Source: Candidatus Omnitrophota bacterium (GTDB lineage: Bacteria > Ratteibacteria > UBA8468 > MWAK01). Taken from it: DNA of 43,252 nt. Both the position numbers and the translations under genes were made by a program. The stretch is from contig JAZDPL010000068.1 in assembly GCA_043797665.1 (NCBI GenBank), positions 1 through 43,252 on the forward strand, given 5' to 3'. Shown piece by piece: positions 24,449 to 42,737 of this stretch. The first letter of the stretch is position 1. Every line of letters begins with the position of its first letter. The notes under the pieces were generated by a model, which was not told where the DNA came from, searched no databases, and saw nothing but the letters and a program-made list of their open reading frames with translations.

Positions 24449-24499
24449 CCTCAGCGGATTAGCAATCCGCCGCACTAAACCAGGCTATGCGACCTCTCC
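24449..24499 (-). pseudogene. tRNA-Ser(GCT) 5' fragment, left att core
   Basis: Minus strand reads GGAGAGGTCGCATAGCCTGGTTTAGTGCG-GCGGA-TTGCTAA-TCCGC-TGAGG: acceptor 5' strand, D arm and a perfect anticodon arm with GCT. No T arm or 3' acceptor strand follows. Confidence 0.85.
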
Positions 24500-24573
24500 A
24501 GTTCGTAAAACCCTTGTCCTGCAACGGTTTCCGTGGCTTTGTCAGAAACCGGACTTTCTTCCTTTTTACCAAG

Positions 24574-24741: not shown

Positions 24742-26256
24742 ATGGCATTACCGATTAATATTCATGAACTGCTTCACGTCCGCGTAATCGAAAGCGAGCG
24801 CCTTGAGTTCAAGGAAGGATGGAATCCGGAGGCGGTTTTGCATACGATGTGCGCCTTTGCCAACGATGTCAATAATTGGGCCGGCGGGTATATTGTGATC
24901 GGTATCGCGGAGAAAAAAGGTGTCCCGGTTTTTCCTCCGAATGGCCTTTCCCCGGCCGAAATCGCCAAGATTCAGAAAGAACTTTTGGGTTTATCGCATA
25001 AGATAAAGCCGGGATATTTCCCGGTCGTAGAGGTAACGAAGTTTGAAGGTCAGGATATTGTTATCATCTGGGTTCCTGGCGGAATGGAGCGTCCTTATAA
25101 AGCCGCGGTGAGTTTGGCTAAGGGCTCAGGATACGCGTATTATATCCGTCGCAGCTCAACAACCAGACGAGCAACCGAGTCGGATGAGCGCAGTTTAATG
25201 AAACTTGCCAACACCATTCCTTTTGATGACCGCGTTAATCATAACGCAAGTCTGAATGATCTGAACATTACCTTGATTCAGGAGTATTTGGCTGAAATCG
25301 GCAGCTCCTTATCAAACGAAGCATCAAAAATGCCGTTTGCGGATTTGTGTTTGCGCATGAATATTGTTGAAGGGCCAGCGGAGTATATAAAACCAAAGAA
25401 TATTGGTCTGATGCTCTTTAACGATAATCCTCAGAAGTTTTTCCCTGTCGCGCAAGTTGATGTTGTGGAATTTAAGGATGAGGTCGGAGATGCGTTTGCG
25501 GAAAAGATTTTTACCGGCCCCGTTCATAATCAGGTGCGCGCGGTGCTTGGCTATTTGAAAAATTTAGTGGTTAAGGAGTTTGTACGTAAGGTACCCGGCC
25601 GAGCAGAGGCAGACCGGTTTTTTAACTATCCGTACGAGGCGCTTGAAGAAGTCTTGGTCAACGCAGTCTATCACCGCAGTTATGAAGAACGTGAGCCGGT
25701 TGAAGTGCGGGTATATCCTGATAGGATTCTTGTTCTTAGCTATCCCGGGCCGTTACCACCGCTTAGCAAAAACAATATCAATAAGCCGATCGTCACTTCG
25801 CACCGATATCGCAACCGCCGTCTGGGCGATTTCCTTAAAGAGCTTCATTTAACCGAGGGTCGTTGCACCGGTTTTCCTAAGATTCGCCGGGCGCTCAAAA
25901 AGAACGGCTCTCCACCCCCTGTTTTTGAAACGGATGACAACCGGGAATATTTTATGGCAACGATCAAGATTCATCCGAAGGCGAAAAAGATGGCAGGGCA
26001 GGCTGAGGAAGAAAAACAGGATCAGGGGTTGGTAGAAGGGTTGGTAGAAGGGTTGGTAGAAAGTCAGAAGAAGATATTGGATTTGGTGAAAGACCGCCCG
26101 TCCATATCAAAAAAAGAATTAGCAGAGCATGTTGGAATTAGCGAGACCGCCGTTGATAAAAATATTGTGCAGTTAAAAAAGAAAGGGTTCTTAAGGCGCG
26201 TTGGCCCCGATAAAGGCGGGCATTGGGAGGTGGTGTGCCACCAATACCAGGAATAG
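24742..26256 (+). CDS. Schlafen/AlbA_2 domain + HATPase-like (RecG-C-type) domain + C-terminal wHTH protein
   Basis: ESERLEFKE and CAFAN....GGYIVIGI match AlbA_2. YPYEALEEVLVNAVYHRSY, YRNRRLGDFLKEL and EGRCTGFPKI match the ATPase-like domain. The wHTH ends RRVGPDKGGHWEVV. Confidence 0.88.
   Translation: MALPINIHELLHVRVIESERLEFKEGWNPEAVLHTMCAFANDVNNWAGGYIVIGIAEKKGVPVFPPNGLSPAEIAKIQKELLGLSHKIKPGYFPVVEVTKFEGQDIVIIWVPGGMERPYKAAVSLAKGSGYAYYIRRSSTTRRATESDERSLMKLANTIPFDDRVNHNASLNDLNITLIQEYLAEIGSSLSNEASKMPFADLCLRMNIVEGPAEYIKPKNIGLMLFNDNPQKFFPVAQVDVVEFKDEVGDAFAEKIFTGPVHNQVRAVLGYLKNLVVKEFVRKVPGRAEADRFFNYPYEALEEVLVNAVYHRSYEEREPVEVRVYPDRILVLSYPGPLPPLSKNNINKPIVTSHRYRNRRLGDFLKELHLTEGRCTGFPKIRRALKKNGSPPPVFETDDNREYFMATIKIHPKAKKMAGQAEEEKQDQGLVEGLVEGLVESQKKILDLVKDRPSISKKELAEHVGISETAVDKNIVQLKKKGFLRRVGPDKGGHWEVVCHQYQE
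26026..26061 (+). repeat. In-frame tandem repeat (GGGTTGGTAGAA)x3 encoding GLVE x3
   Basis: Three perfect 12-bp units in the linker before the wHTH. Confidence 0.9.
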
Positions 26257-26516
26257 AGCGCTCATCTTGGTTCTCTTTGACAGCGGTGCCAGGATAGAAG
26301 AGCTCCTCAATGTTCGGTTGGCCGATTTGACAAAGACAACCCTCAGGTCCAGCTTTTTCCCCTATGACCTATGATAGCATAAGAGTTTTCTTGAAAGAAA
26401 TAGGCCAGAGGATTCTCAAGAAGAATGTATACCCGCATTTATTCAGACACAGCTCGGCAACTTACCACTGCAATAAACTGAACCAATATCAATTGTGTTA
26501 CCGGTACGGATGGAGC
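26234..26516 (+). pseudogene. Tyrosine recombinase/integrase remnant (internally deleted, frameshifted, truncated at both ends)
   Basis: One frame reads RNRALILVLFDSGARIEELLNVRLADL (box I Arg). A second frame reads KNVYPHLFRHSSATY...LCYRYGWS (HxxR and GW). The catalytic Tyr region is missing. Confidence 0.85.
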
Positions 26517-26908
26517 AGTGCTTTTATAATTGCTTTTTTCTGCGATCCATTCATACACCAACCATAATCGTACCAGTTGATTCTGTTTAACTTCCTATAC
26601 TCGAACCGTTCGCCAATTTCTCTATATATCCTTCGAACAATATCTATTCCCTTTTTCGTCAGACCGTAAACTCGACCTGGCTCACCATTTTTAAGTTTTA
26701 AGGTAAGGCATCTGATTATTCTGCGCTGTTCGAGTTCCTTTAAAGTTTTTCCAATCTTTGGTTTGTCTTTTAGGTCAAGTCTTTTGATGACATCGCCCGT
26801 AATCTCGGAAACAGTCCTGGGTGCGTTTAATACCGCCACAATAGCCTTTTTCACTCTATTTTCACAAATATAATTATATGGGTATTGCAAAATTTTTCTT
26901 TTTTCCAT
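26498..26908 (-). pseudogene. Winged-helix DNA-binding protein, probably C-terminally truncated (tandem wHTH)
   Basis: KAIVAVLNAPRTVSEI...LKELEQRRIIRCL...GRVYGLTKKG, then a second unit starts (GSQKKAIIKAL) and runs into the integrase remnant. ATG 26908 is the likely start. Confidence 0.6.
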
Positions 26909-27114: not shown

Positions 27115-27288
27115 ATGCCTAAAACTTATTTAACGGTCAGGGATGTAGCAAAGCAGCTTGAGCTTACCGAGTACAGGGTAAGGCAGCTTATCCGCGAGAA
27201 GCAGATTCGGGCTACCAAGATTAAGCGGTGGAGAATTAGGCCTGAGGATTTGGGGAGTTTTATCGATAGCCGGAGCAACTTAAAATGA
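27115..27288 (+). CDS. Excisionase-family (HTH_17) small DNA-binding protein, 57 aa, absent from the ORF track
   Basis: MPKTYLTVRDVAKQLELTEYRVRQLIREKQIRATKIKRWRIRPEDLGSFIDSRSNLK* fits the YLT..(E/D)VA..L......V...I....I.A.K....WRI...DL..F pattern. Confidence 0.85.
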   Translation: MPKTYLTVRDVAKQLELTEYRVRQLIREKQIRATKIKRWRIRPEDLGSFIDSRSNLK

Positions 27289-27320
27289 AGGGATAGGTGG
27301 AATTCTTTTAAGGCGAAAAA

Positions 27321-28574
27321 ATGGTGAATTTAGGTTCCGTTAAAGTAGATAAGAGTTGGTCGTTTGCTGATATAAGCCGAAAAGAAACACTTTATGCTAC
27401 ACATGGCTACCATCGTTATCCTGCCAAATTCATTCCACAGTTAGTTAGAAGAATAATAAGGGGATACTCTAAACCAGGAGACCTTGTTTTAGACAGTTTT
27501 GGGGGATGTGGTACTACGTTGGTAGAATCCAAACTAAGCGGGCGCGAAAGCATTGGTTTGGATGTGAATGAGGTGGCTGTGCTTATGGCAAAAGCAAAAA
27601 CGATTGCCTTGGAACCTGATACTCTGGAGCAAAGAAATAAGATTTTATTGGAAAGAATCGCAAACAATAAAGACACTAGCAATTATTTTAAAAATGCAAA
27701 TAAACGTTTACAATATTGGTTCAAACCACAAGAATTCAATAAACTAAGAGTTATCTGCGACTGTATTCAGAAAGAAAAGGACAGCAAAATAAGATTATTT
27801 TATAACTGCTGTTTCTCAAATATTTTAAAAAATTGTTCAATTTGGTACTCAAGAAGCATCAAGCCCATGCGGGATGATTCTAAAAAGATAGCTGAGCCTG
27901 CTTCTGCGTTTACTAACCACCTCGATTATATGACGCGAAAAAACAAGGAGTATGTTGAATTGTTACAGGCAAAAAAAGTAGAAAATGTTTCTTGCCAAAT
28001 GAAAAAGGGCAATGCTAGAAAAATAGATTTGCCTGATAATTGCATTGATTTAGCTGTGACATCACCGCCTTATGTTACTTCCTATGAGTATGCGGAATTG
28101 CATCAGCTTTCAATCTTATGGTTTAATTTTGCCGATGATATCAAAGAAATTAAGAAGAATTTTGTCGGGACTTCTTCGCGCGAAAGAGCCAGAAGAAATA
28201 TTGATAGTGAGTTGGCAAAGGGAACCGTCAAGAGGCTAATCAAGGTTAACAAAAGACTAGCCAAACATGTCAGCAATTATTATTACGATCTTGAAAGATG
28301 TTACCGCGAGATACACAGGGTTCTTAAAAAAGGTAAGCATGCTTGTATTATAATCGGGGATACTGAACATAGAGATATTAAAATACCTAATGCAGAGGTT
28401 ACTATTCAGCTATTAGAAAATATTGGCTTTGAATGCAAGAGGATTATTAAAAGGAAATTATCTTCCAAGATTTTTACTCCATATAGGGATAAATCAGGAA
28501 AATTTACTGATGCCGATCATGGAGGAAAAAGAAAAATATATCAATACGAATATGTAATTTTCGCCAAGAAATAA
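27321..28574 (+). CDS. DNA amino-methyltransferase, probably N4-cytosine (alpha motif order)
   Basis: THGYHRYPAKFIPQ; motif I (VLDSFGGCGTT) precedes motif IV (VTSPPY). Confidence 0.88.
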   Translation: MVNLGSVKVDKSWSFADISRKETLYATHGYHRYPAKFIPQLVRRIIRGYSKPGDLVLDSFGGCGTTLVESKLSGRESIGLDVNEVAVLMAKAKTIALEPDTLEQRNKILLERIANNKDTSNYFKNANKRLQYWFKPQEFNKLRVICDCIQKEKDSKIRLFYNCCFSNILKNCSIWYSRSIKPMRDDSKKIAEPASAFTNHLDYMTRKNKEYVELLQAKKVENVSCQMKKGNARKIDLPDNCIDLAVTSPPYVTSYEYAELHQLSILWFNFADDIKEIKKNFVGTSSRERARRNIDSELAKGTVKRLIKVNKRLAKHVSNYYYDLERCYREIHRVLKKGKHACIIIGDTEHRDIKIPNAEVTIQLLENIGFECKRIIKRKLSSKIFTPYRDKSGKFTDADHGGKRKIYQYEYVIFAKK

Positions 28575-28607
28575 AAGCTCTTTTGATGATTCAGAAGGAG
28601 AGCCACA

Positions 28608-30869
28608 ATGGGGAAACAAGGGACCTTTCAACCTAGACCGCACGCCCGTATCATTGCGATGATAGGCGAGCAGCTTATCAGAAATGAGAAAGTTGCATTA
28701 ATGGAGCTAATAAAAAATTCTTATGATGCTGATGCTTCGTGGGTGCAAGTACGTTTTATGAATTTTAACGAAGAAGACAGAGAGTTAGAAATAAAGAAAA
28801 ACTCTATAATTGAAATCGAAGATGATGGTATTGGTATGTCTTTTAACGTTATTGAGAAATCTTGGGTAAATCCTGCTTCCCCTTATAAGTTTTTGCTGAA
28901 AAAAAGAGGTAAAGAAGAAACAAGGAAGAGGAGAATTATTCAAGGAGAAAAAGGCATAGGGAGGTTCGCTGTATATAAACTCGGTTCAACGGTAGAGATT
29001 TTCACGAGACCAGAAGAAGACAATAGAGACGAAGTCTATTTAAAAAGCGATTTGTCTATTTATGATGATGAACTTATAGGTAAGAAAGAAGAGAAATCTG
29101 ATAAACCTCTTTATTTGGATGATATCAAATATAACTACGAAATCAGATCTCCAAAAGTTATCGAACAGAGAGAGTTTATGTTTAAGAATAGCAATCTCAA
29201 AAGACCTAACCACGGTACGTTCATTCGAATAACTAACCTAAGGGGGCATTGGACAACAGATAAAATTAAGGAAATATTTGGTGATTGCTTAAAATTGATA
29301 TCTCCTTTTAATGATGCCGATTTTAGTTGTGATATTGTTGTTAATGGTAGTACTTTTTTTACAGAGAAAGAGCAAGAGCATTTGAAAGATTTATTAGAAC
29401 TCGCTCCAATTAAGATAGAGGGGAGCGTTGATGCTAATGGAAACGTAAAATATAATCTTGGCGAAAAGGAAAAAGAAGAAAAAGAGGGGGAAAAGGTAAT
29501 AACCTTAAAGGAGATGTCAACTGATTCCGAAATTCGAGAGAAATTTTTTGATAAAAAAGGTAATTTAGTAAGGGAACCAGAGTGCGGTCCGTTCAATTTT
29601 AAATTTTATGTTTTCGACCTTGACCGCAAGGCCTCTCTTGAATCTTCTTTATCAAAAGAAGACAGGGATATTATAAAAAGTCATAGAGTGTATCTCTATA
29701 GAGATGGTATTAGGGTTTATCCTTACGGGGACCCTACGGATGATTGGTTAGAAATTGATATAAAAAGAGGAACTGTTAGGGCTGGGAGCTATTTAAGCAA
29801 TGATCAAATAATTGGATATATTGAAATCACTAATAAGCGTAATTCTGCTCTTAGGGATAAAACTAATCGAGAAGGGTTGATGGATATAGGATATAGCTAT
29901 GAAGACTTCAAAGCTCTTAATTTATGGATTTTAGGTTTTCTTAGGACAGAATTTAGAAAATATAAAGATGATCAGCAGGATAAAAGGAAAAAAAATGAGG
30001 AGGAGGAAGGTATCTTAGCTACGGAACAGATAGTTAAAGAAAATATAGATGTTCTCAAAAAGTATTTTGAAGACAAGGAAGATCTTAAGGGTAGCAAGTT
30101 AATAAATTTTCTTGCTGAGAATTATGATAAAGAGAAAAATGTTCTGAATGAAAGAGTCGAGATAGTCGAAGATCTCGCTGGCGTGGGGATAACAGTGGAT
30201 GCCGCTTCTCATGATTTGATGATTATGATGGAGCGAGCGAAAGAAACCCTTAATCTTCTTTTTGAGATGCTGCAAGTTAAAGAAATTGACGTCCCAAAAT
30301 TAAAGGAAACAACTGAAAAAGTTAGAGGGCAATTTGCATTTATTGAGGATCAATTGCATGGGATTCAACCTTTATTTAGGTCTTCAAGGAGATACAGCAA
30401 GAATTGGAGAATAAAAGAAATTATTAAAAAAGTAAAATTGTATTACAGTGTGCCGATTAAAGATAGGAAGATCAATGTCGTTGTTGAAGAAAAGGGTGCG
30501 CCTCTTGTTGTGAAATGCACAGAGGGCATTCTTTTACAGGCGTTTATAAATCTAATAGATAATGCAGTGTATTGGCTAACAACAGCAGATAGGAAAGATA
30601 AGACAATTAAGATTATTATTAATGGGAATAAGTCAGAGGTTATTTTTTCTGATAATGGTCCGGGTATCAAAAAAGATGATCAGCCATATGTTTTTAAACC
30701 ATTTTTTACCACAAAAGGCGTCAAGGGTAGGGGTTTGGGGTTGTATATCACAAGGCAACTGCTCGACCGTTACGATTTCTCCATAGAGCTTATTGAAAAA
30801 GAAAAAAATAAAATTATGGCCGGGGCAAATTTTTTAATAAACTTTGGCGATACCGAATCTGAAGACTAG
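28608..30869 (+). CDS. MORC/GHKL ATPase fused to a C-terminal histidine kinase
   Basis: N-terminal motifs: ELIKNSYDADA, EDDGIGM, GEKGIGRFA, HGT.I.ITNL. Middle: YRDGIRVYPYG...DDWL, DKTNREGL. C-terminal: H-box ASHDL, NLIDNAVYW, DNGPGI, FKPFFTTK, GRGLGLYI. Confidence 0.9.
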   Translation: MGKQGTFQPRPHARIIAMIGEQLIRNEKVALMELIKNSYDADASWVQVRFMNFNEEDRELEIKKNSIIEIEDDGIGMSFNVIEKSWVNPASPYKFLLKKRGKEETRKRRIIQGEKGIGRFAVYKLGSTVEIFTRPEEDNRDEVYLKSDLSIYDDELIGKKEEKSDKPLYLDDIKYNYEIRSPKVIEQREFMFKNSNLKRPNHGTFIRITNLRGHWTTDKIKEIFGDCLKLISPFNDADFSCDIVVNGSTFFTEKEQEHLKDLLELAPIKIEGSVDANGNVKYNLGEKEKEEKEGEKVITLKEMSTDSEIREKFFDKKGNLVREPECGPFNFKFYVFDLDRKASLESSLSKEDRDIIKSHRVYLYRDGIRVYPYGDPTDDWLEIDIKRGTVRAGSYLSNDQIIGYIEITNKRNSALRDKTNREGLMDIGYSYEDFKALNLWILGFLRTEFRKYKDDQQDKRKKNEEEEGILATEQIVKENIDVLKKYFEDKEDLKGSKLINFLAENYDKEKNVLNERVEIVEDLAGVGITVDAASHDLMIMMERAKETLNLLFEMLQVKEIDVPKLKETTEKVRGQFAFIEDQLHGIQPLFRSSRRYSKNWRIKEIIKKVKLYYSVPIKDRKINVVVEEKGAPLVVKCTEGILLQAFINLIDNAVYWLTTADRKDKTIKIIINGNKSEVIFSDNGPGIKKDDQPYVFKPFFTTKGVKGRGLGLYITRQLLDRYDFSIELIEKEKNKIMAGANFLINFGDTESED

Positions 30870-30884
30870 GGTTAAGGAAGAAAA

Positions 30885-32099
30885 ATGGATCTGTTAAAAG
30901 GCATTGCGGTCGTTATTGATGATGGTATAGGCGGAGAACCAAATATTGATAAGATAATTGCTAAGGTTCTCGCTAAAGGAATTCCCACGGCTGAATTTAA
31001 GGATATTCAATCCGCAGAAAAATGTATTCATAATTTCCTTACAGTAAATTTTATTATACTTGACTGGAAGATGGTTTCTGCGCCAGTTGGGGCCCCTATT
31101 GGAGTAGGAGTAGGTCAGGGATTGGTTGCAGCTACTGAATTGAAAGTTGTTGAATTTATCAAAAAACTGAAAAAACATTGTTTTGCTCCGATTTTTATTT
31201 TTACAAATGAAAATCCAGTTGACGTCTTGGCCAAACTACGAGAAGCAGGTTTATATTTTGACCAAGAAGGTCGTGATTTCATTTATGTTAGAAGTAAGAA
31301 CGATATTCTGCAGGACGACAATCTATTTACCGAAACCGATCAATGGATTCATAAAACTCCCTCAATCTATATATTGAAGGTTTGGGATGGAGAATTTCTC
31401 AAAGCAAAAAATGAACTATTCTGGGATTTATACAAGAAAAGTAATGGCTGCTGGCCAAAAGTTTTATGGGAACATTATGAGAGCGAGAAAGAAACCCCAT
31501 ATTCTTGTATAAATGAAGTGATTTTTCAACTTATTTCGAGCAGGGTAAGTTTGAAAGGTATAGAAAAAGAAAAGATTACAGGATTGGCTATGAATCCAGA
31601 ATTAAGTGAAATAAAGGATATTTTCAGAAAAATTATGTTTCAAGATGGCGAATTGTGCAGTGGAACTTTAGAAGGTGTCAAGCCGGGAGACATTTTTAAA
31701 AATAATGATAAATATTTCTTGAATATTCGTCCAGAATGTGATACAGCATCTTATAGACAGGGCAGAGATAATATTTATGTAATTTGTGGAACTAAAGTAC
31801 CAAATGCAAACTTAAAGGATCTTAATTATATAGAGTCTGGTTTAATCCCAAAAATTAACGAAGACTTCGTTTGGCTATTAGATGGTGATGGAGTTGTCAA
31901 GTTTAGTTTTAACGAAGTTGAGTGGTGGAAATTCGAGGAAAATAAGGGTAAAAGGTTATGCAGACTTCTTCCGCCATATATCACGAATATTCAACAGAGA
32001 TTTTCTTCATATTTAGGGAGGTTTGGGGTGCCTAGATTGCCCAAAGCAATTGAAAAGGATATTTTAAAGATTGAAGCTACAACAACCCCTGCTACCTAA
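30885..32099 (+). CDS. Receiver-domain protein with a large uncharacterised C-terminal domain
   Basis: VVIDD, IILDW (phosphoacceptor Asp), IFIFTN and RSK fit a REC fold. The C-terminal ~270 aa contain PGDIF, RPECD and R.GVP.LP. Starts 15 nt after the kinase gene. Confidence 0.78.
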   Translation: MDLLKGIAVVIDDGIGGEPNIDKIIAKVLAKGIPTAEFKDIQSAEKCIHNFLTVNFIILDWKMVSAPVGAPIGVGVGQGLVAATELKVVEFIKKLKKHCFAPIFIFTNENPVDVLAKLREAGLYFDQEGRDFIYVRSKNDILQDDNLFTETDQWIHKTPSIYILKVWDGEFLKAKNELFWDLYKKSNGCWPKVLWEHYESEKETPYSCINEVIFQLISSRVSLKGIEKEKITGLAMNPELSEIKDIFRKIMFQDGELCSGTLEGVKPGDIFKNNDKYFLNIRPECDTASYRQGRDNIYVICGTKVPNANLKDLNYIESGLIPKINEDFVWLLDGDGVVKFSFNEVEWWKFEENKGKRLCRLLPPYITNIQQRFSSYLGRFGVPRLPKAIEKDILKIEATTTPAT

Positions 32100-32185: not shown

Positions 32186-32884
32186 ATGGTGGAGAAAAGC
32201 AAGGTAACAGGTATTAAAAGTTGGCCCGAAGATGACAGGCCGCGGGAGAAGTTGCTCAAGAAGGGCGCGGGGGCTTTGAGTAATTCTGAGCTTCTGGCGA
32301 TTCTTTTGCGTACCGGTACCAAAGGTACAAGCGCTATTGACCTTGCCCGCAAGATTTTGAAGAAATTTAGCACGTTTCGGAACATGGTGCATACCGATTC
32401 GCGCGATTGGAAGGGATTTAAGGGTTTAGGTGGGGCTAAGATTGCCCACATTCAGGCCGCACTTGAAATTGGGCGGCGCTATCGACAGAACGATGTGTCC
32501 ACCGGGAAGCGGAAGATTGTCTCTGCTAAGGACATCGTGGACATTGTCAAGCCCCAGCTCCGCGACCTTAAGACGGAGGTTTTTAAGGTCGTCTATCTTG
32601 ATAACAATAACCGCATTATCGACATCTTGGATTCTGCTGTCGGCACTGTTGATCAGATTTTCCCGATTGTCCGCGAAATAATCCATGCCGCTTTACAGAA
32701 GTTCGCGAAATCAATCGTTTGTGTCCACAATCACCCCAGTTCTGAGTCTGTTCCCAGCACGCAAGATAAGAAATTTACCCAAGACCTATGTAATGCAGGG
32801 AAGCTTATGGACATAAAGGTGCTGGATCATATCATAATTGCTGGCGATAAGCACTTCAGTTTTGCTGATGAAGGGATGGTATGA
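32186..32884 (+). CDS. radC: RadC / JAB-domain protein (full length)
   Basis: Motifs: DRPREKLL..GA.ALSNSELLAILLRTG, G.G.AK, HNHPS, PS..D, VLDHIII, SFADEG. Confidence 0.93.
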   Translation: MVEKSKVTGIKSWPEDDRPREKLLKKGAGALSNSELLAILLRTGTKGTSAIDLARKILKKFSTFRNMVHTDSRDWKGFKGLGGAKIAHIQAALEIGRRYRQNDVSTGKRKIVSAKDIVDIVKPQLRDLKTEVFKVVYLDNNNRIIDILDSAVGTVDQIFPIVREIIHAALQKFAKSIVCVHNHPSSESVPSTQDKKFTQDLCNAGKLMDIKVLDHIIIAGDKHFSFADEGMV

Positions 32885-34374
32885 ATAGCGAAAAAATAAC
32901 ACTATCACAACTTGATCAGTATCTTTCCAAAGCCGCATGGATTCTTAAGGGTCCGGTAGATGCGGCTGATTTTAAGGTCTATATATTTCCGCTTCTTTTC
33001 TTTAAACGAATTTCAGATGTTTATGACGAGGAATATAAGCAGGCGTTAGAAGAGTCAGTCGGTGACGTTGAATACGCGAGATTGCCGGAGTTTCACCGGT
33101 TTATTATCCCAGAAAACTGTCATTGGAATGATGTGCGACAAGTCACAAAAAATGTGGGGCAGGCTCTTCAATATGCGTTCCGCGAGATTGAGAAGGCTAA
33201 TCAGAAATTTCTTTACGGAATTTTTGGTGATGCTCAATGGACAAATAAAGAACGTCTTTCGGATGAGCTTTTAATTAACCTGATTGAGCACTTTTCCCAA
33301 TACAATCTTTCAAACAATAACGTTGAGCCGGATATTCTTGGCCAAGCCTACGAATATTTAATTAAGCACTTTGCCGATTTAACGAATAAGAAAGCCGGGG
33401 AGTTCTACACACCGCGTTCGGTGGTTAATCTGATGGGTAGGATTATTGATGCCAAACCGGGCGAGTCAATTTATGACCCAGCCTGCGGAACCGGCGGTAT
33501 GCTTTTGGAATGTATCAATCACCTGAAGGAAAAGAAGCAGGATTATCGAACCCTCAAAATATTCGGGCAAGAAAAGAACCTTACAACCTCTACCATTGCT
33601 CGGATGAATATGTTTCTTCATGGTGTTGAGGATTTTAATATTGTGCGTGATGATACCTTACGAAATCCTGCGTTTTTTGAAGGCGATAATCTTGCCACAT
33701 TCGATTGCGTAATTGCAAACCCACCGTTTTCTCTTGAGAAATGGGGCGCAAAGCAATGGGAAAAAGATCCATATGGACGTAATATTGCCGGTGTGCCGCC
33801 TGACAGCAATGGTGACTTGGCATGGGTCCAACACATGGTTAAGTCTATGGAATACCCAAATGGTCGCGTGGCTGTTGTTTTGCCTCATGGCGCGCTATTT
33901 CGTAAAGGCAAAGAAGGAGTTATTCGCAAGCAACTCTTAAAGATGGATATCGTTGAAGCAGTTATCGGCTTGGGTCCTAACATATTTTACGGGGCGTCTA
34001 TTGCCGCATGTATCTTGGTGTTTCGGGCAATGAAAAAGAAGGATAAGAAGAACAAAGTGCTCTTTATTGATGCGGCAAATCAGGTGCGAGTGGGACGAGC
34101 GCAAAATTTCCTGGAGGAAGAGTATATAAACCGAATTTATAGTTGGTATCGCAATTATAAGGATGTTCAAGACCATGTTAAAGTTGTATTTCTTGATAAT
34201 ATTGAGGCAAATGATTTTAATCTGCATATTCCGCTCTATGTTGAAAAAAAGATAGAAGATAATCTTCCGACCGTTAAAGAGGCGCTCAAGAATCTTAAGT
34301 CGGCATTTAATGGGGCAGTCAAGGCGGAAGATAAAATGAAAGAACAACTGAAAGAATTTGGACTATTGAAATGA
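32881..34374 (+). CDS. hsdM: Type I methyltransferase subunit M1 (NPPF)
   Basis: Motifs: GEFYTPRSVV, YDPACGTGGML, GQE.N, ANPPF, VLPHGALFR. Confidence 0.95.
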   Translation: MNSEKITLSQLDQYLSKAAWILKGPVDAADFKVYIFPLLFFKRISDVYDEEYKQALEESVGDVEYARLPEFHRFIIPENCHWNDVRQVTKNVGQALQYAFREIEKANQKFLYGIFGDAQWTNKERLSDELLINLIEHFSQYNLSNNNVEPDILGQAYEYLIKHFADLTNKKAGEFYTPRSVVNLMGRIIDAKPGESIYDPACGTGGMLLECINHLKEKKQDYRTLKIFGQEKNLTTSTIARMNMFLHGVEDFNIVRDDTLRNPAFFEGDNLATFDCVIANPPFSLEKWGAKQWEKDPYGRNIAGVPPDSNGDLAWVQHMVKSMEYPNGRVAVVLPHGALFRKGKEGVIRKQLLKMDIVEAVIGLGPNIFYGASIAACILVFRAMKKKDKKNKVLFIDAANQVRVGRAQNFLEEEYINRIYSWYRNYKDVQDHVKVVFLDNIEANDFNLHIPLYVEKKIEDNLPTVKEALKNLKSAFNGAVKAEDKMKEQLKEFGLLK

Positions 34375-35855
34375 TGACACAACAGGCTTTAAAGAAGTAT
34401 TTATGGGGTGCGGCAACGCTTTTGCGCGGGCTTATTGATGGTGGAGATTATAAGCAGTATATCTTCCCGCTTTTATTCTTTAAGCGTATTTGTGACGTCT
34501 ATGACGAGGAATATCAAAATGCGCTTAAGGAATCAAGCGGGGATTTAAAATTCGCGGCGTTTGCAGAAAACCATCGGTTTCAAATTCCCAAAGGCGCACA
34601 TTGGAATCATGTGCGCGAGAACACCAAGAATGTCGGCGTGACCATTGAAAAGGCTATGCGCCAAATCGAGAAAGCCAATCCCGATACGCTATTTGGTATA
34701 TTTGGTGATGCGCAATGGACGAATAAAGACCGCTTGAGCGATGAAACGCTTATTAATTTGTTAGAGCATTTTTCATCGGAGATTTTATCGATCAAAAACG
34801 TTCCCAATGACGAGCTTGGCCAGGGATATGAGTTTCTCATTAAGAAATTTGCGGATGATAGCGGGCATACAGCCGCGGAGTTTTATACTAACCGCACAGT
34901 TGTTCAGTTAATGACATTAATTGTGGGTCCTAAGTCGGGCGAGTCGATTTATGATCCAACTTGCGGTTCTGGTGGCATGCTTTTGTCATGTGTTAATAAG
35001 CTCAAGACTGATGGCAAAGAATATCGTTCCCTTAAACTTTACGGTCAAGAGCTGAATTTAATGACGTCGGCTATTGCGCGAATGAACATGTTTTTGCATG
35101 GTATAGAAGATTTTAAGATTGTGCGCGGCGACACCTTGAAACACCCGGCGTTTTTAGAGAGGGACAAACTGAAGCAATTTAATATCATTCTTGCTAATCC
35201 GCCGTACTCCATCAAGCAATGGAATAGAGCGGAGTTTGAGAAAGACCCTTATGGTAGGAATATCTATGGTACCCCGCCACAGGGGACTGCGGACTATGCC
35301 TTTCAACAGCACATCATTAAAAGTCTTGATGAGAAAAATGGACGATGCGCTATTCTCTGGCCGCATGGGATTTTATTTCGCGATGCTGAGGTAGATATGC
35401 GCAAGAAGATGATTGAGTCCGATGTTGTGGAGGCTGTAATCGGTTTAGGACCGAATCTGTTTTATAATGCGCCTATGGAGGCTTGCGTTTTAGTTTGCAA
35501 TAAGGGCAAAAAGAAAGATCGGCGAGAAAAAATTCTTTTTATCAATGCCGTAAACGAAGTAAAACGTGAGAGCGCATTCAGCTATTTAACGGCTGACCAT
35601 ATTGATAAGATTCATAAAGCATTTGTTGGATATAAGGATATTGATGACTTTGCGAAAGTTATGTCGGTTAAGGTTGTTCTCGCAAATAGCGGTAATATGG
35701 CTATTCCATTGTATGTAAACGCCCAAGGGAATAGGAAGACAGATAAAACGGAAATATCTTTGGGTACGTTGTTAAAAAATTGGCAAAAAAAATCTGACAG
35801 CTTAAGGAAAGATCTGGCTGATATGATAAGTGACCTGTCGGTGGAGATGAAATGA
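34371..35855 (+). CDS. hsdM: Type I methyltransferase subunit M2 (NPPY)
   Basis: Motifs: AEFYTNRTVV, YDPTCGSGGML, ANPPY, WPHGILFR. Clear paralogue of the upstream HsdM. Confidence 0.95.
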   Translation: MMTQQALKKYLWGAATLLRGLIDGGDYKQYIFPLLFFKRICDVYDEEYQNALKESSGDLKFAAFAENHRFQIPKGAHWNHVRENTKNVGVTIEKAMRQIEKANPDTLFGIFGDAQWTNKDRLSDETLINLLEHFSSEILSIKNVPNDELGQGYEFLIKKFADDSGHTAAEFYTNRTVVQLMTLIVGPKSGESIYDPTCGSGGMLLSCVNKLKTDGKEYRSLKLYGQELNLMTSAIARMNMFLHGIEDFKIVRGDTLKHPAFLERDKLKQFNIILANPPYSIKQWNRAEFEKDPYGRNIYGTPPQGTADYAFQQHIIKSLDEKNGRCAILWPHGILFRDAEVDMRKKMIESDVVEAVIGLGPNLFYNAPMEACVLVCNKGKKKDRREKILFINAVNEVKRESAFSYLTADHIDKIHKAFVGYKDIDDFAKVMSVKVVLANSGNMAIPLYVNAQGNRKTDKTEISLGTLLKNWQKKSDSLRKDLADMISDLSVEMK

Positions 35856-36964
35856 CGATTGATACTTCAAGATGGAATAAAGTTGCCTTTGGTGATATTG
35901 CCAAGTGTTTGACAATAGCAACGAAGGACCCGTTGTCAGATGGGCTTGATAGATATGTCGGCCTTGAACATATTGAACCGGGCAACATCCATATTAAGTC
36001 TTGGGGGAATGTGGCGGATGGTACGACTTTTACGCGGGTATTTCGAAAAGGACAGGTTCTTTTCGGCAAAAGGCGCGCCTATCAAAAGAAAGCGGCCATG
36101 GCGGAGTTTGATGGAGTGTGCTCGGGAGATATTCTTGTCTGCGAAGCGATTTCTAATGCTGTATTGCCGGAGTTATTGCCGTTTATCGCTCAGAGCGACC
36201 GCTTTTTTGATTATGCGATTAAAACATCTGCTGGTTCATTGTCGCCAAGGACAAAATTTAAAGATTTAGCAAAGTTTACGTTTATGCTATCACCAAAGCT
36301 CAACGACCAAAGGCGTATCGCGGATTTGTTGTGGAGTATTGATGACGCCGAAGAGAGTTATGTTGTTCTAAGCATTAGGTTAGAACAGGCTTTCTGGCCA
36401 TATTTTGAACAATTGTTGTCAGGGCATAAACAAGTCAAATTGCGCGATGTGCTTATTCCTAAAAAAAATCAAAGCGTTTACCCACATAAATATCAAAAGT
36501 ACTTAGGCATGGAACATATTGATAGCGGAGCATTCGTTTCCAAGCGATACGGCAATAGTGAGGAAGCCAAAGCAAATACATTCATCTTTCAAAAAGGAGA
36601 TTTGTTATATGGTAAACTAAGACCATATTTAGATAAGTGTGTTATTGCAAGTTTTGAAGGAGTTTGCTCAACAGAAATTCTTGTTTATGATGTTCAAGAT
36701 GGTTTCTCGAAGGATTTGGCGCTTTTTTATATGCATTCACCTTCATTCGTTAATTATGTTACAGGTCGAGGATATGGAACCAAAATGCCAAGGGTTTCAC
36801 ACGACATTATTTCTGAATATGTTATTTTGATGCCTTCAAAGGATGAGCAAAAAATAATTTTGAGTAAATTTGAGACTTTGCAAAAAAACGCAGAGAATTT
36901 AAGTATCAACTTGGAAAAATGTAGAGCAATTAAAAAACAAATTATTAACCAGGTATTCGGATAG
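35852..36964 (+). CDS. hsdS: Type I specificity subunit
   Basis: Two TRD-like halves with helical spacers (DQRRIADLL..ID; P..DEQK.I), positioned after hsdM. Confidence 0.9.
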   Translation: MTIDTSRWNKVAFGDIAKCLTIATKDPLSDGLDRYVGLEHIEPGNIHIKSWGNVADGTTFTRVFRKGQVLFGKRRAYQKKAAMAEFDGVCSGDILVCEAISNAVLPELLPFIAQSDRFFDYAIKTSAGSLSPRTKFKDLAKFTFMLSPKLNDQRRIADLLWSIDDAEESYVVLSIRLEQAFWPYFEQLLSGHKQVKLRDVLIPKKNQSVYPHKYQKYLGMEHIDSGAFVSKRYGNSEEAKANTFIFQKGDLLYGKLRPYLDKCVIASFEGVCSTEILVYDVQDGFSKDLALFYMHSPSFVNYVTGRGYGTKMPRVSHDIISEYVILMPSKDEQKIILSKFETLQKNAENLSINLEKCRAIKKQIINQVFG

Positions 36965-36966
36965 GT

Positions 36967-37809
36967 ATGTTAAAAGGACAGCTTAAACTACAGAAACTTA
37001 TGGATGTAGGAACGTCAAATCCGATTGTGGCTGGTTTGACTATCGGATTGCATAATATTGTTGAAATGGCCCAGATTGACCATGATGCGAAAAATACGAT
37101 CAATACCGCTAATTTGAACATAGCGCAGAGTCTAACTAAAGCCGAGAAAATAGGGCTTCAGGTTTGCAAAAATATTGAAGCCGTTATGAAGGATTTAAAT
37201 GAGACCGGGGTGCAGACTCAGTCTTCTGGGTGTTGTGTAAATTTACCGTCGACTGATGGGTTAGATGATGTTCGAGAAGTCTTGAAATACGGCAAGCAGG
37301 CGCTTCAAGAATTGGTGAAGATTATTAATTTATTCTGTGATACGGGTTGCACTAATCCAAATTATAAAAAGATATGCGACAAGTTGGGGGCGGTTTACGG
37401 AGAATCTGACTCGGTGTTTTTGCAAGTTAAACAAGATCATGATGGATGGTTGAAGAAATTTTTAGATTTACGGGATGCGGATGAACATCCAAATTGTATC
37501 CCAAAAGGTAAAAAGCTTTATTATGACTTCGATATTACTTGGTCAGAACCTCATCAAAAATGGGTTGTTGATGCTCCTCATTTTTATGAAGGCACATTTG
37601 TTTACGAAATGATTAAAACTTCAATTCACAATATTTTTACTTTTGCTGAAGAGATAAACATATTATTTTTACAAAAGCATATGCTTGAAATGGTTCAGAT
37701 TTGTAAAGTACCGGAAGGTCAGCAGGCGGGGTGGGGTGGACGAAGATTTGTGATACAACCTAAGCCGCCTTTTTATCCCAAAGATACAAAACCTGAGGGG
37801 AAAATATGA
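36967..37809 (+). CDS. Hypothetical protein with HEPN-like RxxxxH motif inserted between hsdS and hsdR
   Basis: 280 aa, helical-looking, with WLKKFLDLRDADEHP. Starts 2 nt after hsdS and overlaps the hsdR start by 4 nt. Confidence 0.65.
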   Translation: MLKGQLKLQKLMDVGTSNPIVAGLTIGLHNIVEMAQIDHDAKNTINTANLNIAQSLTKAEKIGLQVCKNIEAVMKDLNETGVQTQSSGCCVNLPSTDGLDDVREVLKYGKQALQELVKIINLFCDTGCTNPNYKKICDKLGAVYGESDSVFLQVKQDHDGWLKKFLDLRDADEHPNCIPKGKKLYYDFDITWSEPHQKWVVDAPHFYEGTFVYEMIKTSIHNIFTFAEEINILFLQKHMLEMVQICKVPEGQQAGWGGRRFVIQPKPPFYPKDTKPEGKI

Positions 37810-40775
37810 CTTTTAACGAACAAAATACTATTGAGCAGTATGTGATCTCAAAACTTACCGGCCAAAAATTAGGTGGTACGGGTGACAGCGCACGTCCAGA
37901 GTACGCTCAAACTGTTCAGTGGAAATATGTGTCGGCAGACGAGCTTGGTCGTGATGAAGGCGAAGTTATCATTGAGAGTATGCTCAAAGACGCGCTTATT
38001 CGTATTAATCCTGAAATACGCGCTCTGCCTGAACGCGCGGATGAGGTCATTTATAAGCTCCGCGCGATTCTTTTGTCAGTTAATGAAATCGGACTTGTAC
38101 GAGCGAATGAGGAGTTTACAAAATGGCTCCAAGGTGAGAAAACGATGCCCTTTGGCGAAAACAATCAGCACGTTTCGGTGAGGCTTATTGATTTCGAAAA
38201 GCTATCCAACAATAGTTTTATCGCGACAAATCAATACAAGATTGTCCGCGGTGCCACCAAAATTCCGGATATGGTTTTACTTATTAATGGTATTCCGGTG
38301 GTCATCGGGGAATTTAAGACACCAGTGCGGCCGTCTATCTCTTGGCTGGATGGCGCGGTGCAGATTCACGACGACTATGAAAATACTATTCCAGAGCTTT
38401 TCGTACCGAACATCTTTTCTTTTGCTTCAGAAGGGAAAACATTCCGTTATGGCTCCATCCGTATGCCGCTTGAAATATGGGGCCCTTGGCGTGATGAGAC
38501 AAAGAATGACACGGCAATAGAAGAACTTCTTGGTTTCAAAGAGGTAGAGGTGGCGATTGAATCAATGCTTAAGCCGTCTGTGATCTTGGATATGCTGCAG
38601 TATTTTACAATATTTGCGACAGATAGAAGGAATCAACGGATAAAGATCATTGCTCGCTATCAGCAGTATGAGGGCGCGAATTTAATTGTTCAACGTGTCA
38701 AAGAAGGTGTGGTTAAGAAAGGGCTTGTTTGGCATTTTCAAGGATCGGGAAAGTCGCTTTTGATGGTCTTTGCCGCGCAAAAGATGCGCCAGATGCTTGA
38801 ACTTAAGGGTCCGACCGTATTAATTGTTGTTGATCGCGTTGATCTTGACACTCAAATTACCGCTACTTTTAATGCATGCGATGTGCCCAATATCGTGGCA
38901 ACCGATAGCCGGGAAGAATTACAACGTCTTTTAAAGCAGGACACGCGCAAAATTATTATTACTACCATGCATAAATTTGCGGAGGCGGACGGTCTTCTCA
39001 ACGACAGGAAAAACATCATTGCCTTGGTTGATGAGGCACACCGAACTCAAGAAGGCGATTTAGGACGTAAGATGCGCAATGCATTACCGAATGCCTTTTT
39101 CTTTGGTCTTACCGGTACGCCAATCAATAAACGGGATAGAAATACGTTTAGAACTTTTAGCGCGGAAGGAGACTTGTCCGGATATCTATCCAGATATTCA
39201 TTTGAAGAATCTTTGCGAGATAAAGCAACGCTCCCGCTTCATTTTGAACCTCGGCTTCTGGATATTCACGTTGATAAAGAGCTGATAGATGCGGAATTCG
39301 CTCAAATGACGGAAACGTTATCTGAGGAGCAAAAAGCATTGCTTGTGCAGAAAGCAGCTCAAATGTCTGTGTTTCTGAAATCACCGGATAGGGTGCGGAA
39401 AATTGTCGAGGACATTGTTCAGCATTTTCATGAGAAGATTGAGCCGCAGGGATTTAAAGCGCAGATTGTATGCCCGGATCGATTCGCCTGCGAACAGTAT
39501 AAGCAAGAATTAGACAAGTTTATTTCGCCTGAGGAGAGTGTGGTCGTAATATCAACTAATCATTCTGATGATGAGGCTTTCAAAAAGAAGTATCGAATGG
39601 ATCGCGATGAACAGGAGAAGATTTTAGACAGGTTCCGCGATCCAATGGATCCGCTTAAATTTGTAATCGTAACAGCAAAGCTTTTAACAGGGTTTGATGC
39701 GCCAATATTGCAGGTTATGTATTTGGATAAGGCAATGAAGGATCACAATCTTTTACAGGCAATTTGTCGCACGAACCGTGTCTATAAAGATAAAACGCAT
39801 GGATTGATTGTAGATTATTACGGTGTTTTTGATAATGTGGCCCAGGCTTTAGAATTTGATGAGGCTTCAGTACGACAAGTGATTACGAACATAGGTACAC
39901 TTAAAGAAAAATTGAAGCAAGCAATGGCCGAGTGTCTTGAACATTTCCCGAGCGTAGATAGAAGCATTGAAGGATACGAGGGGCTTTTGCTTGCTCAAGA
40001 ATGTGTGAATACAAATACAAAGCGGGATGCTTTTGCAAATGATTATAGCTATCTGTCGTTATTATGGGAGGCATTATCACCGGATGCTATTCTTAATGTT
40101 TACGAGAATGATTATCGTTGGCTGACGAAGGTCTATGAATCTGTTAAGCCGCCATCCAGCGATACCGGCCGTCTTCTATGGCATGCTTTAGGCGCTCAAA
40201 CCATGAAGCTAATTCATGAGCATATCCATGTTGAGAAGATTAGCGATGATTTAGAGAAGATTATCCTCGATGCTGATGTTGTCGAGGATTTAATGAAAAC
40301 AAATGACGCCAAGAAGACAAAACTGATTGAGATTGAAATTATTAACCGTCTGCGAAAACACAAAGGTAACCCTAAATTCGAAGAACTTGGCCAGCGGCTC
40401 GAAGAGTTACGTGATAAGGTAGAGAGAGGACTTATTAATAGTGTGGATTTTCTTAAGCACTTGATTCAGTTGGCCAAAGAAGTCGTTCAGACTGAGAAAG
40501 AAGAAGAAACGCAAGAAGAGCGAAGGGGGGCCAAGTCAGCTCTTACCGAGCTATTCTTGGAAGTGCGCACGGACCAGACGCCTGCTATCGTAGAGCGTAT
40601 CGTCAACGACATAGATGAAATAGTTAAGGTGGTACGTTTTCCGGGGTGGCAATCTACCGCCGCCGGTGAACGTGAAGTCAAAAAAGCCCTGCGTAGAACG
40701 CTCCTTAAATATAACTTACACACCGACCAAGACCTATTCGACCGGGCGTATGGATATATTAGGGAGTATTATTGA
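37806..40775 (+). CDS. hsdR: Type I restriction enzyme R subunit
   Basis: Nuclease motif PD..LLINGIPVVIGEFK; helicase motifs WHFQGSGKS, VDEAHRTQ, GLTGTP, LLTGFDAP, QAICRTNR. Confidence 0.95.
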   Translation: MTFNEQNTIEQYVISKLTGQKLGGTGDSARPEYAQTVQWKYVSADELGRDEGEVIIESMLKDALIRINPEIRALPERADEVIYKLRAILLSVNEIGLVRANEEFTKWLQGEKTMPFGENNQHVSVRLIDFEKLSNNSFIATNQYKIVRGATKIPDMVLLINGIPVVIGEFKTPVRPSISWLDGAVQIHDDYENTIPELFVPNIFSFASEGKTFRYGSIRMPLEIWGPWRDETKNDTAIEELLGFKEVEVAIESMLKPSVILDMLQYFTIFATDRRNQRIKIIARYQQYEGANLIVQRVKEGVVKKGLVWHFQGSGKSLLMVFAAQKMRQMLELKGPTVLIVVDRVDLDTQITATFNACDVPNIVATDSREELQRLLKQDTRKIIITTMHKFAEADGLLNDRKNIIALVDEAHRTQEGDLGRKMRNALPNAFFFGLTGTPINKRDRNTFRTFSAEGDLSGYLSRYSFEESLRDKATLPLHFEPRLLDIHVDKELIDAEFAQMTETLSEEQKALLVQKAAQMSVFLKSPDRVRKIVEDIVQHFHEKIEPQGFKAQIVCPDRFACEQYKQELDKFISPEESVVVISTNHSDDEAFKKKYRMDRDEQEKILDRFRDPMDPLKFVIVTAKLLTGFDAPILQVMYLDKAMKDHNLLQAICRTNRVYKDKTHGLIVDYYGVFDNVAQALEFDEASVRQVITNIGTLKEKLKQAMAECLEHFPSVDRSIEGYEGLLLAQECVNTNTKRDAFANDYSYLSLLWEALSPDAILNVYENDYRWLTKVYESVKPPSSDTGRLLWHALGAQTMKLIHEHIHVEKISDDLEKIILDADVVEDLMKTNDAKKTKLIEIEIINRLRKHKGNPKFEELGQRLEELRDKVERGLINSVDFLKHLIQLAKEVVQTEKEEETQEERRGAKSALTELFLEVRTDQTPAIVERIVNDIDEIVKVVRFPGWQSTAAGEREVKKALRRTLLKYNLHTDQDLFDRAYGYIREYY

Positions 40776-40790
40776 TGGTAATAATTGAAT

Positions 40791-41375
40791 ATGAAAAATA
40801 ATGTGGACAAACAGGTAAAGAGACAGCAGGTAAGAGATAATTTAATATCTGTTTTTAATTCATCTATTGACGTACGTGTCAATAGATATCTGGATATTGG
40901 GCATCAGTGGATTATCGGAAATCATCATTTTGCAAAAGCGTCCTCTGAATGTATCAACGTTTATCGTGATGGCCATTTTATTGCTGCTGTAATGATGAGC
41001 CATAGCATCAACGAAGGTATTATTATGTTTGTGGCAAGGCGGGTTAAGTTGCCCAAACATAAAAGCGATGGTAATACAAAATCAATAAAAGAATTGATCA
41101 GCGAATTAGAACAACAGAAAACGATGTCAAAAGCGTGCATAGATGCCTCGCGGGGAATATACGGAAGCTATAGAAGTGATATTCATCACATGAATCCAAA
41201 AGTGGGCAGTATCGATTTTTGTTCATTAGCGCGAGAAAATCTTAAACGATTAGCGATAATCGAAGGAGAAATTTTTGGAGCGAATATAATTGAAGGTAAA
41301 TTAAAGCCTTATCATCCAGTTTATTGGGATTTGAACGCAGACGGTACGGTTTCCGCATTTTTGCGTTTAGAGTGA
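40791..41375 (+). CDS. Hypothetical protein, HEPN/DUF4145-like
   Basis: ECINVYRDGHFIAAVMMSHSINEG helix, I..LI..L, and YRSDIHH (RxxxxH). Start is either TTG 40785 or ATG 40791. Confidence 0.65.
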   Translation: MKNNVDKQVKRQQVRDNLISVFNSSIDVRVNRYLDIGHQWIIGNHHFAKASSECINVYRDGHFIAAVMMSHSINEGIIMFVARRVKLPKHKSDGNTKSIKELISELEQQKTMSKACIDASRGIYGSYRSDIHHMNPKVGSIDFCSLARENLKRLAIIEGEIFGANIIEGKLKPYHPVYWDLNADGTVSAFLRLE

Positions 41376-41813: not shown

Positions 41814-41857
41814 GGATTAGCAATCCGCCGCACTAAACCGGGCTATGCGACCTCTCC
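41814..41857 (-). pseudogene. tRNA-Ser(GCT) 5' fragment, right att core
   Basis: Minus strand reads GGAGAGGTCGCATAGCCCGGTTTAGTGCGGCGGATTGCTAATCC, then diverges within the anticodon stem. Confidence 0.85.
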
Positions 41858-41902
41858 AGTTCTACAGCGACTTTTATATATTATACCGCAAAAATCGTAA
41901 TA

Positions 41903-42603: not shown

Positions 42604-42737
42604 CCCGGAATTGATTGCCAAAGTCGGAGTAGTAAATAATGGTAAATCAAAATCCAGAACAAATACAGACAATAAAATATCAGCTTCAAAAGCTTGATAT
42701 TGAATAATATAGATTGCAGAAAAGGATAGGGGTTACA

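Follow-up and report, generated by a model that had tools for sequence, protein, structure and literature searches.

A mobile methylase, MORC-histidine kinase and receiver cassette with a predicted MazF/CcdB-fold output domain

The 43,252-nt contig JAZDPL010000068.1 of Candidatus Omnitrophota bacterium (hereafter, the window, meaning the whole stretch analyzed) carries adjacent genes for a DNA methylase, a fusion of a MORC-type ATPase with a histidine kinase, and a receiver protein. Comparison across loci identifies these genes as a self-contained mobile trio that is complete as it stands, and modeling predicts that the output domain of the receiver protein (about residues 262-385) has the MazF/CcdB/ToxN fold. 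The gene arrangement has been known since 2021; what is added here is a nuclease-free clade with SPPY-type methylases, the predicted fold of the output domain and a link to phosphorothioate genes.

The block consists of four co-oriented open reading frames (ORFs) on the forward strand, with intergenic gaps of 32, 33 and 15 nt. A 57-aa excisionase-like helix-turn-helix (HTH) protein (27115..27288; Pfam HTH_17, E 1.9e-10) is followed by the 417-aa DNA methyltransferase (27321..28574; Pfam N6_N4_Mtase; PADLOC MTase_II, E 2e-52), the soluble 753-aa MORC/MutL-type GHKL ATPase fused to a histidine kinase (28608..30869; Pfam HATPase_c_3 at residues 28-139 and HATPase_c at 642-732), and the 404-aa receiver protein (30885..32099), in which nothing reaches the Pfam cutoff. 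The GC content of the block is 0.355 versus 0.481 for the genome, a value as low being found in 1 of 938 5-kb genome segments. The original prediction, made from the sequence alone, described just such an AT-rich block of four genes, with gaps of 15-33 nt and no recognizable restriction endonuclease. Both statements stand; in Pfam and PADLOC, nuclease families match none of the encoded proteins. The same prediction listed the small HTH protein among the products of the four genes; the protein is there, but it is likely an accessory controller rather than a core component because the GC content of its gene is 0.466 compared with about 0.35 for the trio, and homologues lie upstream in only two other loci (L001 and L018). 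In 6 further loci, an XRE gene occupies the same place. A promoter scan remained at chance level (23 versus 18.3 +/- 4.0).

A search for receiver homologues yielded 173 proteins at E 0.001 or better, of which 108 were aligned. The 108-sequence profile led to 17 genome loci and 80 metagenome loci (80 kept out of 86 that were confirmed) and, once 6 loci with identical receivers were dropped, to 91 non-redundant loci. The MORC-kinase gene abuts the receiver gene in all 74 loci that have at least 300 nt of upstream sequence, and a cognate methylase precedes the kinase in 51 of the 53 loci with at least 2.7 kb upstream; the two exceptions are L063, with a different, DPPY methylase in place, and L078, with a divergent methylase on the other strand only. 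The largest homologous group among the 211 flanking ORFs comprises the 6 XRE genes. Pfam annotation of 148 flank proteins from these loci (146 of the 211, at least 95 aa long and truncated at 600 aa, together with 2 from L129) revealed no nuclease that accompanies the trio as a constant partner: restriction-modification (R-M) genes of type I, III or IIG lie just downstream in 8 of the 91 loci, and a single HNH_3/AP2 gene is found near one of them, with none in the window. Housekeeping or unrelated genes flank the cassette on both sides in many loci (for example, L004, L007, L008, L011, L053 and L097). Because the kinase and methylase adjacency is kept and neither a nuclease nor any fourth gene is common to the loci, we consider the cassette to be complete as a trio. 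Joint conservation of the three genes, which the original prediction left to a neighborhood survey, is thereby borne out, and the extra endonuclease that would make the locus a deleted remnant is not a constant companion of its homologues.

The pairwise identities of the three genes correlate across 47 loci (Spearman 0.71-0.88; the loci include kin and are not independent), and over dozens of loci the mean identity of the trio is about 35-46%, with invariant catalytic residues. The carriers include archaea and several bacterial phyla, in a patchy spread. None of 60 related genomes, among them 31 that are at least 90% complete, yielded the receiver; viral contigs gave no match, and phage genomes gave none for a related receiver. 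A cultured carrier is Allorhizobium pseudoryzae DSM 19479 (plasmid NZ_CP049245.1; WP_165225903/900/897). Several loci show variations on the arrangement. A second methylase, of another subfamily, is divergent and head-to-head with the cassette in L078 (799-2019), L091 (300-1562) and L129 (3334-4524); one kinase is followed by two tandem receiver-output genes in L089 (1503-4078); and homologous proteins of 330-350 aa, with no Pfam match, follow the receiver in L006 (11178-12236) and L043 (817-1815).

The kinase has the architecture originally described, namely two GHKL domains, an H-box and no evident transmembrane segment. The H-box His535 (30210-30212) precedes the second GHKL domain, and no transmembrane-like stretch was detected, the highest 19-residue hydropathy being 1.43. 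Among 58 full-length homologues, E33 and N37 are conserved in at least 95%, whereas D72, G113/K115/G116, K418, H535, D536, N652, G684 and G686 are present in all 58. A DKxxREG motif is presumably S5-like, as judged by motif position rather than by fold. Below the NCBIfam cutoffs, the N-terminal ATPase matches BbrUII/HgiDII, alongside other kinase matches; a PDB sequence search gave no match for the MORC part.

The methylase shows the motif order F-G-G then SPPY and the N6_N4_Mtase match expected of the SPPY methyltransferase originally proposed. In NCBIfam, it has matches below the cutoff only. SPPY is present in 45 of the 48 cassette methylases, with DPPY in one and no motif matched in two. 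The SPPY motif points to N4-cytosine methylation, and the annotation of distant phage relatives as cytosine or N4-cytosine methylases is in line with this. By these sequence features, the product is likely N4-methylcytosine.

The receiver domain (residues 1 to about 157; 30885..31355) retains the intact DD/D/T/K set noted from the start: D12, D13, D60 (the phospho-acceptor, 31062-31064), T107 and K138 are all present and conserved, with D60 and K138 in 108 of 108 receivers and threonine or serine at position 107 in all of them. An AlphaFold 2 (AF2) model of the whole protein has a predicted local distance difference test (pLDDT) score of 91.9, and a structure search with this full model retrieved receiver domains (VIA Z 13.1), with MazF further down. 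None of Pfam, NCBIfam, PADLOC and PHROGs names the protein, the sole match being a weak one to DUF6678, and the receiver profile had no match in a PDB sequence search. The window receiver does not match PF19192 (Response_reg_2), as opposed to 20 of the 108 homologues at E 0.1 or better (best, 2.5e-6). In the ESM Atlas, unnamed clusters score 0.91-0.92 and a PF19192 cluster 0.76-0.85. Judging from sequence comparison, the family appears to be a sister clade of PF19192 rather than a formal member.

The original prediction treated the C-terminal part of the receiver protein as one output domain of about 270 aa with no family. Pfam indeed provides no family name, but the region is not a single domain: it consists of a helical linker (residues 158-250; 31356..31634, by predicted secondary structure) and a compact output domain (31668..32039). 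A full-length homodimer was predicted with a score of 0.79, the best control reaching 0.00; the runs share at least 92% of contacts, with a pLDDT of at least 79, and, in calibration, 20 of 30 solved pairs scored at or above the mark, compared with 1 of 23 single chains. The predicted interface comprises an edge of the receiver domain (residues 5-9 and 29-55) and the linker helices (158-250), the output domain contributing just residues 263 and 360-364. The segment of about 158-250 is thus predicted to be a dimerization linker, and MazF-type pairing, which runs through strand 6 and the C-terminal helices, is not part of the dimer model because the interface is formed by the receiver edge and the linker.

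The original prediction proposed that the receiver's C-terminal domain is the effector and suggested structure prediction and a fold search as a check. Folded alone (residues 238-396, 85 sequences), the domain was modeled with a pLDDT of 89.7, and the top 15 of 48,161 chains searched are all MazF, Kid/PemK, CcdB, CptN, AbiQ or ToxN. The best hits are tied: Staphylococcus aureus MazF at Z 10.1 (root-mean-square deviation (rmsd) 3.1, 102 residues aligned), MazF-mt3 at 10.0 and CcdB at 9.9 (rmsd 2.8, 95/95), with the next unrelated chain at Z 3.6. Foldseek searches against the PDB and viral models agree with a MazF/CcdB superfamily fold. The domain, with its predicted toxin-superfamily fold, is the sole effector candidate in the cassette. 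The PDB sequence search had no match for the output-domain profile, and no CcdB family member turned up when 6 genomes were searched.

The catalytic residues of MazF are Arg29, before strand 2, and Thr52, after strand 3, according to the portions of PMC11394972 available. By secondary-structure register, these positions correspond to K276 and 303/304 of the output domain, which are variable in an alignment of 361 sequences (276: K in 133, R in 44, S in 37; 303 and 304 not Thr). Other residues are nearly invariant in the same alignment, namely C285 (361), N280 (360), D286 (356), R379 (356), R282 (354) and R360 (347); in distant clades, just G268, P-x-C-D and R-x-G persist, and N280 and R282 are not kept. 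The output domain also has short homologues (77 proteins); most of these are encoded on short contigs, and they may be fragments rather than stand-alone forms. The Cys-Asp motif (Cys285-Asp286, 31737-31742) immediately follows strand 2, and the R-x-G motif (Arg379, 32019-32021) lies at the end of the last helix. The domain lacks the long beta1-beta2 loop; its short turn presumably resembles that of CcdB. By the order of secondary-structure elements, the Cys-Asp and Arg motifs match the CcdB segments that bind gyrase, described in the accessible text of PMC5086665 as Asp23-Thr27 and Glu87-Ile101. The matching segments touch across subunits in MazF-mt3, and the authors suggest, in the part of PMC11394972 at hand, that such contacts are possibly protein-specific. 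We infer that the near-invariant Cys-Asp and Arg residues lie on the face by which CcdB binds gyrase. A catalytic or metal-binding site is the function that we favor for this motif, since a strictly kept cysteine would be unusual for a mere binding patch. The output domain is likely not an mRNA interferase of the MazF type.

The output domain extends well beyond the clade of the window. Its profile covers 825 clusters at 50% identity and finds the domain in receivers next to C5 methylases (Acaryochloris and Campylobacter plasmids) and in a receiver from an Enterobacter plasmid (E 2e-10 to 1e-13, 11 sequences). Cys-Asp is present in 9 of 9 canonical PF19192 proteins of at least 500 aa, and an alignment of seven of these matches the domain with an HHalign probability of 95% (E 4e-8). 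MORC-kinases of Stenotrophomonas and Pseudanabaena are paired with short receivers that have no output domain. MORC-kinase/receiver pairs also lie beside Ssp phosphorothioate genes in all five plasmid loci that were opened (L135/L158, NZ_CP073634.1 110168-120816; L156; L157; L159; L133). On Methylorubrum pME152, the pair comes directly after sspABCD, with SspE/FGH not recognized within 12 kb, and in Ensifer, it is convergent with sspABCD. P-x-C-D is conserved in four of the five Ssp-linked receivers, which match the output domain at an HHalign probability of 87% (E 4e-6). This clade is possibly an undescribed partner of SspABCD. Taken at the level of gene content, the mark beside the kinase-receiver pair appears to be exchangeable, being C5 or N4-type methylation in some loci and phosphorothioation in others. 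Because the output domain terminates both canonical Response_reg_2 proteins and Ssp-linked receivers, it looks like the common effector of the family.

The closest described arrangement is that of HEF_HK (PF19191) and Response_reg_2 (PF19192). In the available text of the comparative study, which includes no experiments, soluble kinases with HATPase_c_3, an H-box and HATPase_c adjoin divergent receivers in which no other known domain was found, mostly together with C5 methylases (Bellieny-Rabelo, Pretorius, Moleleki 2021, PMC8011034). The window shares with these systems the kinase architecture without transmembrane segments, a divergent receiver, an upstream methylase and the homologous C-terminal domain. 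It differs in that its proteins miss both Pfam models (PF19191 is unmatched at E 0.01 by the window kinase and by 7 related kinases), the H-box reads SHD, the receiver has 404 aa rather than about 600, and the methylase is of the SPPY type, with no Vsr, instead of C5.

The original prediction knew of no mechanistic characterization of such systems, and this is now partly out of date. Ambrosia (AbrR-A-B-C-D) is a validated anti-phage system with a methylase, an HATPase/histidine kinase and a receiver; as reported in the accessible sections of the preprint, each gene is needed, the D60A substitution in the receiver abolishes defense and expression rises on infection (bioRxiv 10.1101/2025.09.30.679545). 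Compared by these descriptions, both clusters combine a small regulator, a DNA methylase, an HATPase/histidine kinase and a receiver with a conserved Asp. Ambrosia has an N6-adenine methylase, a winged HTH receiver and a separate HNH nuclease, whereas the cassette has an output of predicted MazF/CcdB fold and no nuclease gene. By analogy, a relay of this kind can be needed for defense.

Other comparisons are more distant. Like the prokaryotic MORC/paraMORC ATPases of R-M operons (Iyer et al. 2008, PMC2292703), the window kinase has an N-terminal GHKL ATPase beside a DNA methylase and a patchy lateral spread; the partners named in the portion of that paper available are nucleases and helicases, with no 'receiver' or 'two-component' mention there. 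The MazF/PemK/Kid RNases, CcdB and ToxN/CptN/AbiQ resemble the output domain in predicted fold, but the window domain is fused to a receiver, has no antitoxin gene, lacks the MazF catalytic residues and carries its own Cys-Asp/Arg signature. An unvalidated system predicted by DefensePredictor, for which a figure legend in PMC13092281 names HATPase and REC, could be related. Literature searches, with most subscription papers and bioRxiv supplements outside their scope, returned no paper that assigns a MazF/CcdB fold to these receivers.

The reading that we tentatively prefer, at not quite even confidence, is that of a mobile cassette that likely protects the cell from foreign DNA by means of a phosphorelay. 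The methylase would likely mark host DNA as self, and the MORC clamp would load on DNA and gate the kinase. Faced with DNA that is unmarked or invading, the kinase would transfer phosphate from its His535 to Asp60 of the receiver, thereby switching on an effector of predicted MazF/CcdB fold that acts through a Cys-Asp/Arg site. The resting homodimer is predicted to be held by the receiver edge and the linker, with the output domains not paired as in MazF; phosphorylation may rearrange this dimer and so bring the Cys-Asp and Arg motifs together into a working site, located where CcdB has its gyrase-binding face, and this site would attack or block a DNA or protein target. As to the pairing of output domains driven by phosphorylation, we only hypothesize that it occurs.

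Several observations weigh against this reading. A shared fold shows no function, sequence similarity of the output domain to MazF is undetectable (HHalign 0.2-0.4% against 25 MazF sequences), and the residue mapping to CcdB and MazF follows the secondary-structure register rather than superposed coordinates. The output domains barely touch in the dimer model, so that the composite Cys-Asp/Arg site is absent from it; in direct coupling analysis, four pairs that fit a MazF-type dimer (267-380, 283-377, 287-378 and 359-378) rank within the top 28, and all four failed a tree-based co-change test. The cassette DNA avoids no motif when palindromes are compared with synonymous shuffles, the only signals being the host-wide ones of GATC and CTAG, which also appear in controls. 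SspF or SspG/H, which themselves form a restriction module, adjoin the pair in three of the five Ssp-linked loci, a setting that fits an accessory role equally well. In Ambrosia, AbrA methylation gives phage no protection and no host toxicity was seen, at least in the accessible sections of the preprint, which argues that a simple self/non-self logic is not general.

A broader version of the preferred reading, which we regard as possible but doubtful, is that MORC-kinase/receiver cassettes constitute a nuclease-free restriction module of general use, able to work with any kind of DNA mark (methylation of the C5 or N4 type, or phosphorothioation). In response to DNA that lacks the mark, phosphorylation would drive MazF/CcdB-fold domains to pair, creating a new active site made up of Cys, Asp and Arg.

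It is rather unlikely that the kinase-receiver pair is an accessory or addiction module with no anti-phage activity of its own, which regulates or assists the methylase, a neighboring R-M system or an Ssp module through protein contact on the CcdB-like face, or maintains the element by killing cells that lose the methylase. The location of the conserved motifs on the partner-binding face of CcdB is compatible with such a role, as are the R-M genes adjoining 8 of the 91 loci, the SspFGH genes in three of the five Ssp-linked loci and the speculation of the 2021 authors, in the available text, on signaling that controls R-M systems (PMC8011034). However, housekeeping or unrelated genes surround many loci, the output has no DNA-binding HTH fold, and conservation of the cysteine in 361 of 361 sequences suggests chemistry.

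Less likely still is an Ambrosia-like scheme, in which the kinase would sense infection itself, in the form of a phage protein or DNA structure, methylation would not be a protective self mark and the output would act with or on methylated DNA. What the accessible preprint text says of Ambrosia (the need for each gene and for Asp60, induction on infection, non-protective methylation) agrees with this scheme, as does the XRE or HTH gene that precedes the trio in 8 related loci and in the window. Against it, both the winged HTH receiver and the HNH nuclease of Ambrosia are absent here, and the occurrence of one kind of pair with C5, N4-type or phosphorothioate marks is most simply explained if the mark denotes self.

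We consider improbable a MazF- or ToxN/AbiQ-like ribonuclease with a rebuilt active site, whereby phosphorylation would trigger abortive infection through RNA cleavage. To its credit, 14 of the top 15 fold matches are RNase toxins or complexes thereof, even ToxN and Kid have different active sites (from the part of PMC5086642 available), and the window clade keeps N280, R282 and R360; nevertheless, the positions matching MazF Arg29 and Thr52 vary, the long beta1-beta2 loop is missing, and N280 and R282 are lost in other clades. A decayed R-M operon that lost its endonuclease is hardly credible: many canonical Response_reg_2 regions contain nucleases, as far as the available text of PMC8011034 reports, but the trio is intact and nuclease-free in dozens of loci, despite low identity, with invariant catalytic residues.

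The cassette resides in a stretch of 17.4 kb enclosed by 49-nt direct repeats, each corresponding to the 5' half of tRNA-Ser(GCT) on the reverse strand (left, 24456..24504, likely one of the island borders; right, 41814..41862, 98% identical). This AT-rich stretch is likely an integrated island. Besides the cassette, it holds a Schlafen/AlbA gene, the remnant of a broken tyrosine integrase in two short ORFs (26201..26567, forward strand; PHROG integrase families match weakly, at E 5e-4 and 3e-3), and, as a separate neighbor, radC with a type I R-M operon (32186..40775, forward strand; two HsdM, HsdS, an ORF of an unnamed family and HsdR, identified with Pfam, NCBIfam and PADLOC). As the type I system is not conserved together with the trio, it was rejected as the source of a cognate nuclease. 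Both borders of the island repeat the 5' half of the tRNA gene instead of the 3' end, as would be usual; another incomplete copy of tRNA-Ser(GCT) is located at C71:10771-10798 of the genome, and the two complete genes lie near the ends of contigs C32 and C59. The tandem HsdM pair of the type I operon (32881-35855) combines one NPPF and one NPPY protein, which resembles the two-methylase type I subgroup that produces N6-methyladenine and N4-methylcytosine (m6A/m4C). Two ORFs in and after this operon, 36967-37809 (280 aa) and 40785-41375 (196 aa), have no match in Pfam, NCBIfam, PADLOC or PHROGs. Outside the repeats, a second HsdR gene is found at the left end of the window (32-2332), and a weak PD-(D/E)XK match and a PIN toxin-antitoxin pair at the right end (42714-43232).

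Hundreds of kinase-receiver cassettes beside DNA methylases lacked an identifiable effector; a predicted fold and three candidate catalytic residues can now be assigned to their output, which turn the effector question into one of point-mutant tests. If the preferred reading is correct, a MazF/CcdB-fold protein would be gated by His-Asp phosphorylation rather than by an antitoxin, and DNA marks of different chemistry would be read out by signaling. Should the broader, general-module reading hold, a toxin-fold enzyme would operate under a two-component relay, with a chemistry unlike that of MazF or CcdB.

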